Shown here one piece after another: positions 1-6,794 of a stretch of DNA of 6,794 nt. Both the position numbers and the translations under genes were made by a program. Location: positions 1 through 6,794 of IMG/VR virus record IMGVR_UViG_2657245124_000002; one strand, given 5' to 3'. Every line of letters starts with the position of its first letter. The first letter of the stretch is position 1. Source of the stretch: a virus (lineage: Duplodnaviria > Heunggongvirae > Uroviricota > Caudoviricetes). The notes beneath the pieces were generated by a model, which saw only the letters and a list, made by a program, of their open reading frames with translations, searched no databases and was not told the origin of the DNA.

Positions 1-2907
1 CAGCTGCAGAACAAAACGCTCTGGTCGTCATACACCGAAATCATCGATGTGAAACAGTGCTACCCGAACACGGCACTGGTCGGCGTACAGGTGGATTCGG
101 AGCAGTTCGGCAGCCAGCAGGTGAGCCGTAATTATCATCTGCGCGGGCGCATTCTGCAGGTGCCGTCGAACTATAACCCGCAGACGCGGCAATACAGCGG
201 TATCTGGGACGGAACGTTAAAACCGGCATACAGCAACAACATGGCCTGGTGTCTGTGGGATATGCTGACCCACCCGCGCTACGGCATGGGGAAACGTCTT
301 GGTGCGGCAGATGTGGATAAATGGGCGCTGTATGTCATCGGCCAGTACTGCGACCAGTCGGTGCCGGACGGTTTTGGCGGTACGGAGCCGCGCATCACCT
401 GTAATGCCTGGCTGGCCACACAACGTAAGGCGTGGGATGTGCTCAGTGATTTCTGCTCGGCGATGCGCTGTATGCCGGTATGGAACGGGCAGACGCTGAC
501 GTTCGTGCAGGACCGGCCGTCGGATAAGGTGTGGACCTATAACCGCAGTAATGTGGTGATGCCGGATGATGGCGCGCCGTTCCGCTACAGTTTCAGCGCC
601 CTGAAGGACCGCCATAATGCCGTTGAGGTGAACTGGATTGACCCGGATAACGGCTGGGAAACGGCAACAGAGCTTGTGGAGGACACGCAGGCCATTGCCC
701 GTTACGGTCGTAACGTCACGAAGATGGATGCCTTTGGCTGTACCAGTCGGGGGCAGGCACACCGCGCCGGGCTGTGGCTGATTAAAACAGAACTGCTGGA
801 AACGCAGACCGTGGATTTCAGCGTCGGCGCAGAAGGGCTTCGCCATGTACCGGGCGATGTTATTGAAATCTGTGATGATGACTATGCCGGTATCAGCACC
901 GGTGGTCGTGTGCTGGCGGTGAACAGCCAGACCCGGACGCTGACGCTCGACCGTGAAATCACGCTGCCATCCTCCGGTACCACGCTGATAAGCCTGGTTG
1001 ACGGAAGTGGCAATCCGGTCAGCGTGGAGGTTCAGTCCGTCACCGACGGCGTGAAGGTAAAAGTGAGCCGTGTTCCTGACGGCGTTGCTGAATACAGCGT
1101 ATGGGGGCTGAAGCTGCCGACGTTGCGCCAGCGCCTGTTCCGCTGCGTGAGTATCCGTGAGAACGATGACGGCACGTATGCCATCACCGCCGTGCAGCAT
1201 GTACCGGAAAAAGAGGCCATCGTGGATAACGGGGCGCACTTTGACGGCGAACAGAGTGGCACGGTGAATGGTGTCACGCCGCCAGCGGTGCAGCACCTGA
1301 CCGCCGAAGTCACCGCAGACAGCGGGGAATATCAGGTGCTGGCCCGCTGGGACACGCCGAAGGTGGTGAAGGGGGTGAGTTTCATGCTTCGCCTGACCGT
1401 GGCAGCGGATGACGGCAGTGAGCGGCTGGTCAGCACGGCCCGGACGACAGAAACCACATACCGCTTCAGGCAGCTGGCGCTGGGGAACTACAGGCTGACA
1501 GTCCGGGCGGTAAATGCGTGGGGGCAGCAGGGCGATCCGGCATCGGTATCGTTCCGGATTGCCGCACCTGCAGTGCCGTCGCGGATTGAGCTGACGCCGG
1601 GCTATTTTCAGATAACCGCCACGCCGTATCTTGCCGTTTATGATCCGACGGTACAGTTTGAGTTCTGGTTCTCGGAAAAACGGATTGCGGATATCAGGCA
1701 GGTTGAAACCACAGCCCGCTATCTTGGTACGGCGCTGTACTGGATAGCCGCCAGTATCAATATTAAGCCGGGCCATGATTATTATTTTTACGTTCGCAGT
1801 GTGAACACAGTCGGCAAATCGGCATTCGTGGAGGCTGTCGGTCGGGCGAGCGATGATGCGGAAGGTTACCTGGATTTTTTCAAAGGAGAAATCGGGAAAA
1901 CACATCTGGCCCAGGAGCTGTGGACGCAGATTGATAACGGTCAGCTTGCGCCGGACCTGGCTGAAATCAGGACGTCCATTACGAATGTCAGCAATGAAAT
2001 CACGCAGACCGTCAATAAAAAACTGGAAGACCAGAGTGCGGCAATCCAGCAGATACAGAAAGTTCAGGTTGATACAAATAATAACCTGAACAGCATGTGG
2101 GCCGTGAAACTGCAGCAGATGAAGGACGGACGCCTTTATATTGCGGGTATCGGAGCCGGTATTGGGAATACGCCAGCAGGTATGCAGAGTCAGGTGCTTC
2201 TGGCTGCTGACCGGATTGCGATGATTAATCCTGCGAATGGCAACACAAAGCCGATGTTTGTTGGTCAGGGCGATCAGATATTCATGAACGACGTGTTCCT
2301 GAAACGCCTGACAGCTCCGACCATTACCAGCGGCGGTAATCCTCCGGCATTTTCCCTGACACCGGACGGGCGGCTGACGGCGAAAAATGCCGATATCAGC
2401 GGTAACGTGAATGCGAACTCCGGGACGCTCAACAACGTCACGATTAACGAGAACTGTCGGGTTCTGGGAAAATTGTCCGCCAACCAGATTGAAGGCGATC
2501 TCGTTAAAACAGTGGGCAAAGCTTTCCCCCGGGACTCCCGTGCACCGGAGCGGTGGCCATCAGGGACCATTACCGTCAGGGTTTATGACGATCAGCCGTT
2601 TGACCGGCAGATTGTTATTCCGGCGGTGGCATTCAGCGGCGCTAAACATGAGAAAGAGCATACTGATATTTACTCCTCATGCCGTCTGATAGTGCGGAAA
2701 AACGGTGCTGAAATTTATAACCGTACCGCGCTGGATAATACGCTGATTTACAGTGGTGTTATTGATATGCCTGCCGGTCACGGTCACATGACGCTGGAGT
2801 TTTCGGTGTCAGCATGGCTGGTGAATAACTGGTATCCCACAGCAAGTATCAGCGATTTGCTGGTTGTGGTGATGAAGAAAGCCACCGCAGGCATCAGTAT
2901 CAGCTGA
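1..2907 (+). CDS. J: Phage tail-tip host-specificity protein J (lambda gpJ-like central fibre), 5'-partial; the gene begins upstream of the window
   Basis: Frame 1 is open from nt 1 to the TGA at 2905-2907. The translation matches lambda gpJ as recalled, e.g. [59 protein letters not shown]. Two fibronectin-III-like repeats lie at about aa 420-600 of the in-window product. The GTG at 49 used by the ORF track is internal, not the true start. Confidence 0.95.
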
Positions 2908-2925
2908 ATTTTATAACCCATATAC

Positions 2926-2952
2926 GGGCGCCAGAAATGGCGCCTTTTTTAT
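2926..2952 (+). terminator. Rho-independent terminator downstream of J (tJ-like)
   Basis: GGCGCC (2927-2932), loop AGAAAT, GGCGCC (2939-2944), then a T6 tract (2945-2950), 19 nt after the J stop. Confidence 0.7.
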
Positions 2953-2974
2953 TGCAGAAAAGCGAGAGGTAATT

Positions 2975-3406
2975 ATGCGTAAAGTTTGTGCAGCCATTTT
3001 GTCCGCAGTCATCTGTCAGTCCGTATCCGGTGCGCCTGCATGGGCGTCTGAATATCAGTCCACACTGAGCGCGGGGTATCTTCATGCCCGTACGAACGCT
3101 CCCGGCAGCGATAATCTGAACGGGATTAACGTGAAATACCGTTATGAGTTTACGGACGCGCTGGGGCTGATTACGTCCTTCAGTTATGCCAATGCTGAGG
3201 ATGAGCAAAAAACGCACTACAGCGATACCCGCTGGCATGAAGATTCCGTGCGTAACCGCTGGTTCAGCGTGATGGCGGGGCCGTCTGTACGCGTGAATGA
3301 ATGGTTCAGCGCGTATGCGATGGTGGGTGTGGCTTACAGCCGTGTGTCGACTTTCTCCGGGGATTATCTCCGCGTAACTATACAGCAAATAAACCAACAG
3401 GCCTGA
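2975..3406 (+). CDS. lom: Lom-family outer membrane beta-barrel protein (Ail/OmpX/PagC family), C-terminally truncated; probable pseudogene
   Basis: GAGAGG Shine-Dalgarno 6-11 nt upstream of the ATG at 2975. N-terminal signal peptide MRKVCAAILSAVICQSVSGAPAWA. Lom-like sequence runs to about ...[11 protein letters not shown] (near nt 3379), then 8 unrelated codons and a stop. The product is 143 aa against roughly 206 aa for lambda Lom (from memory). Confidence 0.8.
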   Translation: MRKVCAAILSAVICQSVSGAPAWASEYQSTLSAGYLHARTNAPGSDNLNGINVKYRYEFTDALGLITSFSYANAEDEQKTHYSDTRWHEDSVRNRWFSVMAGPSVRVNEWFSAYAMVGVAYSRVSTFSGDYLRVTIQQINQQA

Positions 3407-3927
3407 CAGATGGAACTGTATATGTAATTTACAGTTCGCACATTAAACCGACTGCTGCTGATGTTGGGGCGTTGTCATTATCTGGAGGTCAACTGAATGG
3501 TGCACTGGGTATCGGAACATCCAGTGCTCTTGGCGGTAATTCGATTGTATTGGGTGATAATGACACGGGCTTTAAACAAAATGGCGATGGTAATCTGGAT
3601 GTTTATGCTAATAACGTCCATGTTATGCGCTTTGTTTCCGGCGGCATTCAAAGTAATAAAACCATAAATATTACAGGGCGTGTTAACCCCTCGGATTACG
3701 GTAACTTTGATTCCCGTTATGTGAAAGATGTTCGACTTGGTTCACAGCAATATTATGGAGTGAACAACTGGCAAACATGGAATTTCCAGTGCCCTTCAGG
3801 TCATGTATTATCTGGTATTAATGTTCAGGATACAGGGTCTAACTCTGCCGATAATATAGCGGGCGTTTATTACAGACCCGTTCAAAAGTATATAAATGGC
3901 ACCTGGTATAATGTAGCGAGCGTTTAA
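3301..3927 (+). CDS. Side tail fibre C-terminal (receptor-binding) segment, copy 1; 5'-truncated fragment with fibre homology only from about nt 3380
   Basis: The translation from about 3380 ([63 protein letters not shown]...[11 protein letters not shown]) is paralogous to the minus-strand fibre segment at 5021-5950. The first 25 codons of the track ORF are lom DNA read out of frame, there is no Shine-Dalgarno at the ATG at 3301, and the TAA stop (3925-3927) sits 1 nt before the tfa ATG. Confidence 0.7.
3478..3740 (+). repeat. Left arm of a 263-bp inverted repeat inside the two tail-fibre variable segments
   Basis: Compared by eye with the reverse complement of 5187-5449: about 10 mismatches in 263 bp (about 96%), with a perfect run of roughly 110 bp at 3478-3586. 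Confidence 0.85.
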
Positions 3928-3928
3928 T

Positions 3929-4456
3929 ATGATGCACTTAAAGAACATAAAAGCGGGTAATGCTAAAACACTGGAACAGTATGAGTTAACAAAGAAACAC
4001 GGAGTTATCTGGCTTTACTCTGAGGACGGAAAAAACTGGTATGAGGAAGTGAAAAACTTTCAGCCAGACACCATAAAGATTGTTTACGATGAAAATAATA
4101 TTATTGTCGCCATCACCAGAGATGCCTCCACGCTTAATCCCGAAGGTTTTAGCGTCGTCGAGGTTCCCGATATAACGGCCAATCGTCGGACCGATGATTC
4201 CGGTAAGTGGATGTTTAAGGACGGAGCTGTGGTTAAACGGATTTATACGGCTGACGAACAGCAACAACAGGCCGAATCACAAAAGGCCGCATTGCTTTCC
4301 GAAGCTGAATCAGTCATCCAGCCGCTGGAACGCGCTGTCAGGCTGAATATGGCAACAGACGAGGAACGCACACGACTGGAAGCATGGGAACGCTACAGTG
4401 TTCTGGTCAGCCGTGTGGATACGGCAAATCCTGAATGGCCACAAAAGCCTGAATAA
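3929..4456 (+). CDS. tfa: Tail fibre assembly protein (Tfa / Mu U-like chaperone), cognate to fibre copy 1
   Basis: 175-aa ORF starting 1 nt after the fibre stop. The N-terminus [40 protein letters not shown] is typical of Tfa chaperones, and the protein is a paralogue of the 4485-5018 product. Confidence 0.85.
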
Positions 4457-4461
4457 AAATT

Positions 4462-4481
4462 AAGGCCCGATAGCGGGCCTT
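4462..4481. terminator. Hairpin between the convergent tfa genes; candidate bidirectional terminator
   Basis: Perfect 8-bp stem AAGGCCCG (4462-4469) / CGGGCCTT (4474-4481) with loop ATAG. An A-rich tract to its left gives a U-tract for minus-strand transcripts; the plus-strand T tract is weak. Confidence 0.5.
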
Positions 4482-4484
4482 CTC

Positions 4485-5018
4485 TCATTCTGGTTGTTCT
4501 GGAAACGTTACTGGCAGGCTGGAGGTGTCTGTGGATTCAACCTTCTGCGCATAGAGCATCCACTCGGTTAATTTTTGTTTATTCTCATCGGAAATGATGC
4601 CCAGCCGTAGCTGAGAGTCCCACAGCTGGGTTTTATCCCTGACGAGCTGCAGCAGGCTCTGCTTTTCATTTTCCGCTTGTTGCCTTTGCTCTTCCTCGGT
4701 ATAAGTTCGCTTTATCACCGCACCATCTTTGAACATCCAGTTGCCCGAAATATCAGCCCGGCGATTTGCTGTAATATCAGGCAACTCAACGACACTTAAA
4801 CCTTCTGGATTAATTGCTGATACATCCTTGTCTATAGCAATAATTATTCCCTCAACTGTGTAAGCCAGTTTTATTGTATCCTCCTGAAAGTTTTTTAATT
4901 CCTCATACCAATTTTTTCCATCTTCGGACCATAACCAGATAACATCAAAATTCTTTGTTAGCTGGTATTGTTCAACGGTTTTTGGATTACCTGCGACAAT
5001 GTTTTTTAAATGCTGCAT
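4485..5018 (-). CDS. tfa: Tail fibre assembly protein (Tfa / Mu U'-like chaperone), cognate to fibre copy 2
   Basis: 177-aa ORF with ATG at 5018-5016, 2 nt after the stop of the minus-strand fibre segment and preceded by an AGGT Shine-Dalgarno. N-terminus [40 protein letters not shown]. Confidence 0.85.
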
Positions 5019-5020
5019 GA

Positions 5021-5950
5021 TTATACCTGCGATACGTTATACCATGTTCCGTTAATTAACTTTTGTATTGGTCTGAATACTGCCGGATCATCACCATCGA
5101 CTTCACCGATAATACCAAGCCCCGTGATTACATGGCCTGATTTTTCATACATCACGCCTTTCTTCATGGTCTGAACAACTCGTGTGCCAAGTCTGACATC
5201 TCTCACATAGCGGGAATCAAAGTTACCGTAATCCGAGGGATTAACACGTCCCGTAATATTTATGGTTTTATTACTTTGAATGCTTCCGGAGACAAAGCGC
5301 ATAACATGGACGTTATTAGCATAAACATCCAGATTACCATCGCCATTTTGTTTAAAGCCCGTGTCATTATCACCCAATACAATCGAATTACCGCCAAGAG
5401 CACTGGATGTTCCGATACCCAGTGCACCATTCAGTTGACCTCCAGATAACGGCAGTGCACCAACATCTCCTGCTGAAGGTTTTCTGGTGGTGGTGTAAAA
5501 TTCGGACCAGTCGGCTTCAAAACCATAACCATCACGGGCTGAACGATAAAAAATACCGCCATTTTTATAATTAATCCGAAACTGAGCTGCAGGACAACTT
5601 CCTTCTCCCATATAAAAATGAATAATTAACGTTGATGCACCACTAATAGTTGCGTTATAGGCTCCGCTACTCCAGTTCCATCCAACTGCTTTATCATTCT
5701 CAACGGTGCTTCCTGTTTTCCCTAAGGCAAACGCACCAACATGACTTGCTTTTAATGTGATATCGGAGGAACCATCAAAAGCCACATTGCTTATTTTCCT
5801 GGCAGTTTTTAATTTTGCAGCTGTAGAAGCATTGCCGGATAGTTCACCAGAAAGGCCACCGCTGAATGTTTGTCGATTAGTCCAGGTATTCGCTGTACTG
5901 AGTAACGGTATTTTCTCCCCGCTTGTGCCGAGTTCTCGTAAACCGAGGTT
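5021..5950 (-). CDS. Side tail fibre variable C-terminal segment, copy 2 (silent-orientation copy with no start codon of its own; the track calls 5021-5785 from an internal GTG)
   Basis: The minus-strand frame is open from 5950 to the TAA at 5023-5021 (translated by hand: [66 protein letters not shown]...). An in-frame TAA lies immediately outside the crossover site (5953-5951), as expected for a segment that is expressed only after inversion fuses it to a constant fibre N-terminus. Confidence 0.8.
5187..5449 (-). repeat. Right arm of the 263-bp inverted repeat (partner of 3478-3740)
   Basis: The reverse complement of 5187-5449 aligns base for base with 3478-3740. Both arms encode [81 protein letters not shown]. 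Confidence 0.85.
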
Positions 5951-5958
5951 TTAGATAA
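5933..5958. other. Site-specific inversion crossover site (hix/gix/pix-like, 26 bp)
   Basis: TTCTCGTAAACC-GA-GGTTTTAGATAA: two imperfect inverted 12-bp half-sites around a 2-bp core. The right half reads TTATCTAAAACC on the other strand, close to the recalled TTATCAAAAACC half-site consensus. It sits 55 bp upstream of the invertase start and inside the fibre copy 2 reading frame. Confidence 0.65.
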
Positions 5959-6012
5959 TGGCGGTTTCTGGCCTGCATGGAATGATTTGTGCTTTTGGAC
6001 GGGAGATTCAGC

Positions 6013-6279
6013 GTGCTGATTGGCTATGTAAGGGTATCAACAAATGACCAGAATACAGATCTGCAACGAAACGCTCTTGTTTGTGCAGGATATGAACAAA
6101 TATTTGAAGATAAATTAAGCGGAACAAGGACAGGCCGACCTGGATTAAAATGTGCTTTAAAGCGCCTTCAAAAAGGTGACGCACTGGTTGTCTGAAAACT
6201 GGACTGACTGGGTCACTGTATGCGGCATCTTGTCGTGCTGGTGGTGGAAGCCTAGAAAAAGTATCGGGTGTTGCTGAAC
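6013..6279 (+). pseudogene. pin: Serine DNA invertase of the Pin/Gin/Cin/Hin family, inactivated by in-frame stops and truncated by an IS insertion
   Basis: GGGAGA Shine-Dalgarno, then GTG at 6013. The product VLIGYVRVSTNDQNTDLQRNALVCAGYEQIFEDKLSGTRTGRPGLKCALKRLQKGDALVV carries the resolvase-type catalytic N-terminus. The frame hits TGA at 6193-6195, TGA at 6205-6207 and TAG at 6253-6255, while homology continues between them (KLD*LGHCMRHLVVLVVEA*). Homology ends at the IS boundary at 6280. Confidence 0.85.

Positions 6280-6794
<515 letters not shown>

Follow-up and report, generated by a model that had tools for sequence, protein, structure and literature searches.

The question raised by this locus is how the middle of a lom gene came to abut an internal part of the variable segment of a side tail fibre gene (stf). 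The window analysed here, 6,794 bp in length, is the whole of contig LIVH01000067.1 from the draft assembly GCA_001420045.1 of Escherichia coli; its first base lies within gene J and its last within an insertion sequence. A literature search on the assembly accession LIVH00000000 found no paper. From the comparisons given below, the junction is most probably the product of a single illegitimate, i.e. homology-independent, deletion of about 2.5-2.7 kb in the lambdoid prophage of one E. coli strain. Such a deletion would have brought nucleotide 405 of lom, in codon 135, next to an internal position of the expressed stf variable segment.

Three prophages served as the main references: the intact lambdoid prophage regions of E. 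coli strain 504239 (NZ_CP025859.1, hereafter L005) and of E. coli strain ZH142 (NZ_CM125651.1, L006), and a P2-like prophage of E. coli HCP5S3_I4 (L002), which has an intact invertase and the H-tfa cassette of which was used as a fibre reference. The features of the window are listed in Table 1. For the called J gene the record lists the Pfam families Phage-tail_3, Ig_J, Phage_Tail_Tip and Ig_GpJ_C, and J of the window shares 94-96% nucleotide identity with gpJ of intact E. coli prophages.

Table 1. Features of the window, with positions counted from its first nucleotide.
Feature	Position	Strand	Basis or remark
J, tail-tip host-specificity gene, last 968 codons, open to contig start	1-2907	+	ORF list
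Terminator-like hairpin, then T run, between J and lom	2926-2951	+	Consensus scan only
lom remnant, codons 1-135 of 199	2975-3379	+	PF06316 and alignment to intact Lom
Probable deletion junction	3379-3380	+	T3379 common to both parents; no filler bases
Out-of-frame tail of the lom' ORF, IQQINQQA and TGA, from fibre DNA	3380-3406	+	ORF 2975-3406, alignment
stf variable segment copy 1 remnant, last 182 codons and stop	3379-3927	+	Corresponds to residues 827-1057 of L005 Stf
Left arm of 318-nt inverted repeat, 90% complementary	3428-3745		Partner at 5182-5499
tfa, copy 1 tail-fibre assembly gene, intact	3929-4456	+	PF02413 Caudo_TAP, E 8e-38
G+C-rich hairpin between convergent tfa genes	4462-4481		Consensus scan
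tfa', copy 2 tail-fibre assembly gene, intact	4485-5018	-	PF02413, E 4e-34
stf variable segment copy 2, complete from crossover site to stop, 303 codons, silent, inverted	5021-5932	-	gp37_C, gp37_trimer
Sole remaining 26-bp invertase crossover site, TTCTCGTAAACCGAGGTTTTAGATAA	5933-5958	-	Pattern search
pin (serine invertase) remnant, about 79-80 of 196 codons	6013-6249	+	PF00239 Resolvase N-terminal, E 4e-14
IS3-family element end, terminal repeat starting TGAACCGCCCCGGG at 6280, contig ends inside	6280-6794	-	rve domains

Position and structure of the junction

The breakpoint was mapped base by base against three lom references and two fibre references, together with pairwise BLAST. Positions 1-3379 of the window aligned without gaps to the J-lom region of L006 with 95.9% nucleotide identity. 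All three lom references matched the window through T3379 and diverged completely from 3380, where identity fell to noise level. Both fibre references matched from T3379 onwards and were unrelated upstream. On the fibre side, positions 3379-5218 aligned to the tail-fibre/tfa cassette of L002 (5005-6844) with 93.6% identity over 1,840 gapless nt, and positions 3379-3613 aligned to 7616-7850 of L005, which is the interior of a lambdoid stf, also with 93.6% identity. The original prediction had put a deletion junction at 3370-3390 and had proposed an alignment to an intact lambdoid lom-stf region; this alignment placed the breakpoint to the base, at 3379/3380, within that range. Similarly, the ungapped lom match ended where the Lom homology had been said to stop, at about nt 3379 (...GDYLRVT). 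The predicted start of the fibre homology needed a correction: the homology does begin at this point, with the TAT at 3379-3381, but the N of the proposed fibre motif 'NYTANK' is lom sequence and not fibre.

The junction reads ...GTAACT of lom, followed by ATACAGC. Microhomology, which it had also been suggested to look for, amounted to 1 nt, as T3379 is the only base common to both parents in register. Both parents also contain the tetranucleotide AACT, but shifted by one position relative to each other. Base-by-base comparison with the parents revealed no mobile-element sequence at the junction. On both sides, collinear homology to an intact reference is lost abruptly at one point, and the 1-nt microhomology, the zero inserted bases and the lack of a mobile-element end are together typical of an illegitimate deletion, which would likely have come about by replication slippage or end joining.

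When positions 2900-4000 were searched by megablast against 5,426 complete E. coli genomes and GenBank phages, two separate sets of matches were obtained. Lom-bearing records spanned positions 1-480 of the query and fibre-bearing records spanned positions 477-1101, and 0 records in these collections covered 80% of the query. The junction is known from one 6,794-bp draft contig, LIVH01000067.1, which is a caveat on the deletion. An assembly or library artefact, in the form of a chimeric read or a misjoin with the junction absent from the living strain, would accord with this single contig of a single draft assembly, with the protein product of the junction ORF (KQJ25656.1) being recorded only from NCBI on one contig, and with the contig being bounded by repeats (J and the IS). 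However, graph assemblers need tens of shared bases for a join, and here the two sides share 1 nt in register. A graph misjoin is unlikely since no k-mer longer than 8 nt is common to both sides nearby. Moreover, had the same genome contained an intact copy of the lom allele, which would instead be joined to GTAACTGACAAC, the contig should have broken off here. We consider an artefact to be quite unlikely.

Missing DNA and origin of the junction

Comparison with L005 and L006 revealed what the window has lost. The gene order in both is J, lom, stf, tfa, inverted tfa', inverted stf' and pin remnant, as had been assumed for intact relatives. Their lom gene is 600 bp long and encodes a 199-aa protein of the Ail/Lom family, stf is 2958-3174 bp long (985-1057 aa) and is annotated as 'prophage tail fiber N-terminal domain-containing protein', and the pin remnant appears in their annotation as a 'recombinase family protein' of 64 aa. 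When the whole window was used as query, many E. coli chromosomes were found to carry all of its parts at one locus, which is about 2.1-2.9 kb longer than window positions 1-6279. The window resembles L005 and L006 in gene order, in J-lom (94-96% identity) and in the type of its 26-bp crossover site, but differs in lacking the full 199-aa Lom, the 985-1057-aa Stf and one of the two crossover sites. The prophage of E. coli 504239 is decaying by another route, as its gene J (L005 928-4406) is annotated as frameshifted.

The missing stretch measures 2,737 nt against L005 (4879 to 7615) and 2,521 nt against L006. These values are only an estimate of the deletion size because the true parent is absent from the collections, the best J-lom match being the 95.9% one. 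The DNA absent from the window comprises lom codons 136-199 (the last 64), the lom-stf spacer, the whole constant part of stf, the left 26-bp crossover site and, from the variable segment, its first 151 codons. This last number was measured on L005, where the left crossover site ends at 7162 and the breakpoint lies at 7616; the earlier figure of about 130 lost codons was therefore too low. The proposal that one deletion had removed the lom 3' end, the whole constant part of stf and the left site was supported, since a single gap of about 2.5-2.7 kb accounts for all of these losses.

The longest continuous match of the fibre side, the 1,840 nt from 3379 to 5218, is to the H-tfa cassette of the P2-like prophage L002, and it could suggest recombination between two prophages, a lambdoid one giving J-lom and a P2-like one giving the fibre cassette. 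The right flank tells against it. Positions 5938-6279, which hold crossover-site sequence, the pin remnant and a tfa fragment, are 97-98% identical to L005 and L006, whereas the P2-like match ends at 6203 with 94% identity. The same fibre tip was also found, with 98% identity, inside lambdoid J-lom-stf loci, e.g. that of NCTC86. Recombination with a P2-like prophage was rejected, the right flank being specific to lambdoid relatives, and we regard it as highly improbable. Since the right flank matches the lambdoid relatives, including the same truncation of pin, the DNA on either side of the gap is of one prophage type.

One feature near the breakpoints hints against a simple one-step join. The heptamer GCGTAAC recurs near both of them, above chance: it lies at 3372-3378 in the window, 1 nt short of the lom breakpoint, and both fibre references carry it again 20-27 nt upstream of their own breakpoint (4979-4985 in L002). 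It is read in the same codon phase on both sides, as R-V-T in lom and as S-V-T in the fibre, and GGGATTAT is likewise common to both, further upstream. A shared 7-mer was reached in 170 of 20,000 shuffles (0.85%). These observations would accord with an origin in two steps, in which a crossover at the shared GCGTAAC gave an in-frame fusion of Lom(1-135) to the fibre tip, and a 19-nt deletion (GATTCATACATCACCAACT) then broke the frame. The hypothetical in-frame intermediate would contain CCGCGTAACGATTCATACATC. However, two events are needed here where one is sufficient, the ends of the proposed 19-nt deletion have no microhomology, and the hypothetical 120-nt intermediate junction had 0 covering records in the 5,426 complete E. 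coli genomes. Such an origin is very unlikely in our judgement. The shared GCGTAAC may be due to chance or may be a trace of a two-step event.

State of the fibre-switching segment

The window carries two variable fibre C-termini, each with its own tfa, in opposite orientation, at 3379-4456 (+) and 4485-5932 (-). Mu G/Gin and P1 C/Cin are comparable invertible fibre segments. For P/Pin of e14, an invertible tail-fibre system has been described (PMC12529663). The locus shares with Din-family invertible segments the two alternative fibre C-termini with tfa, inverted to each other, and a 26-bp site beside a gene of the resolvase family. It differs from them in the deletion of one site and of the constant part of the fibre, and in an invertase that is both truncated and interrupted by stops. 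It is a degraded representative of these well-known invertible fibre cassettes, which occur in lambdoid and P2-like phages. Pattern search revealed one crossover site in the window, whereas L002, L005 and L006 each have a pair in inverted orientation; in L005 one of the pair is inside stf (7137-7162) and the other beside the recombinase remnant (10352-10377). The window thus contained neither two inverted sites nor an intact invertase, nor a constant fibre part across the site.

The pin remnant lost homology to the intact invertase after about codon 79, and comparison with the intact homologue revealed two in-frame stops, one replacing a tryptophan codon (6193-6195) and the other an arginine codon (6205-6207). 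The same truncation is present in the lambdoid relatives of many E. coli genomes, in which a 64-aa remnant is followed by a tfa fragment; pin of the window has one more stop codon than is found in this lineage. As pin is already truncated in the relatives, the invertase must have been lost before the deletion described here. Homology to L005 ends at 6279, and the IS, with its boundary at 6279/6280, sits in the tfa fragment downstream of the pin remnant. Copies of this IS3-family element in other E. coli genomes, which carry the annotation IS3 family transposase, share 99.8% identity with it.

The occurrence of crossover sites and a pin remnant in the same locus raises another explanation for the junction, namely that a Pin/Cin-type invertase made the deletion at secondary crossover sites (quasi-sites), one within lom and one within the fibre segment. 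Low-frequency use of quasi-sites has been reported for Cin. We scored the 26-mers at the junction and at both parental breakpoints against ten real crossover sites. They gave 11-14 matches out of 26, against a background of 8-16 in the window with a mode of 11-12, and deletion at quasi-sites was rejected. Besides, pin of this lineage is a dead remnant. Hence we give this explanation almost no probability, and an illegitimate deletion is the reading followed here.

Loss of an invertase need not by itself stop inversion. In the case of e14, an invertase from another prophage can invert the segment, and deletion of one inverted repeat gave no inversion (PMC12529663). In the window, inversion by the invertase of another prophage should be ruled out because one crossover site is lost. 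The fibre-switching segment would thus be locked, and no Pin-type invertase, even one supplied by another prophage, should be able to invert it. The 318-nt inverted repeat is the conserved middle block of both variable segments. Without the left crossover site, it is the sole substrate left that could allow inversion of the tfa-tfa' core, by homologous recombination.

The remaining site itself differs from those of the lambdoid relatives, its outer half being TTCTCG as against TTCCTG. Homology to these relatives begins at 5938, inside the crossover site, which fits the segment to its left being a different allele of the cassette.

Remnants of lom and stf, and distribution of the junction

The lom remnant matched the Ail_Lom family (PF06316) with an E value of 2.4e-86 and 289 bits (cutoff 23) over profile positions 1-140 of 199. 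It keeps Lom residues 1-135 of 199, and 125 of these 135 (93%) are identical to the intact Lom of L006. After GDYLRVT, lom' ends with 8 out-of-frame codons (IQQINQQA). Members of the Ail/Lom family are eight-stranded barrels; intact Lom ends in ...VGVGYKF, and a full-length barrel of about 199 aa with a C-terminal aromatic end is absent from lom'. Judged by its sequence, lom' is a gene remnant and not a functional member of the Ail/Lom family, and the Lom fragment should not fold into the outer membrane.

The 143-aa product of ORF 2975-3406 carries the NCBI label 'hypothetical protein' and would be better annotated as a Lom truncated after residue 135 and extended out of frame. The 90%-identity cluster to which it belongs numbers 6,993 members. 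Of the 14 others that were listed, 8 have a length of 199 aa and the remaining ones are shorter, several of them being labelled partial. A 143-aa Lom ending in IQQINQQA in related phages would have argued against a deletion; the protein proved to be a singleton in its cluster. The same would hold for a fibre family starting at the breakpoint, and the matching fibres were found to run far upstream of it: identity starts at the tyrosine codon 3379-3381, equivalent to residue 827 in L005, where Stf has 1057 aa.

The fibre remnant lacks Stf codons 1-826, including the prophage tail fiber N-terminal domain as annotated by RefSeq in the relatives, and gave a weak match to gp37_trimer, below the Pfam cutoff. 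The gene caller placed here a gene of 151 aa (3472-3927) with a TTG start at 3472; what was called here is the C-terminal tip of a side tail fibre, cut off from the rest of its gene. Both lom' and the fibre tip are likely to be dead remnants, i.e. pseudogenes.

In phage lambda, lom is expressed from the resting prophage. After the deletion, lom would be followed immediately by a receptor-binding fibre tip and by tfa, the gene for its chaperone, and the tip fragment, if translated (e.g. from TTG 3472), might conceivably bind a surface receptor and so block adsorption of other phages. A precedent of this kind is StfE2, the chimeric fibre protein of the cryptic prophage e14, which is reported to block phage adsorption (PMC12529663). 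In the window, however, nothing that precedes residue 827 is left on the tip fragment, and the event is confined to a single strain. A consensus scan revealed no convincing start signal or promoter-like site suitably placed for the fibre tip. A role as receptor blocker is extremely improbable, and the sequence offers no positive evidence for it.

The junction was absent from the 5,426 complete E. coli genomes. Its exact 29-mer was absent from GTDB species representatives, and a 25-mer with one degenerate position was absent from JGI metagenome contigs. The junction is a private, strain-specific event, and presumably a recent one. The cryptic prophages of E. coli K-12 (Rac with lomR/stfR/tfaR/pinR, Qin and e14) likewise carry fibre and lom remnants, and laboratory lambda PaPa has a frameshift in stf. 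In these, as in the window, lom or stf has been inactivated by deletion, IS or frameshift while the neighbouring genes persist, but the breakpoint and the strain are different. Thus, the junction itself is new and the kind of event, prophage decay by deletion, is routine. The region may well be undergoing neutral prophage decay. The locus gives a base-resolved view of such decay, with a deletion, truncation of the invertase, nonsense mutations and insertion of an IS within 3 kb, and its significance goes little beyond correct annotation.

Lambdoid and P2-like phages, although unrelated phage types, have fibre cassettes in common, and the same fibre tip was also present on the 48-kb plasmid records of ATCC 25922.
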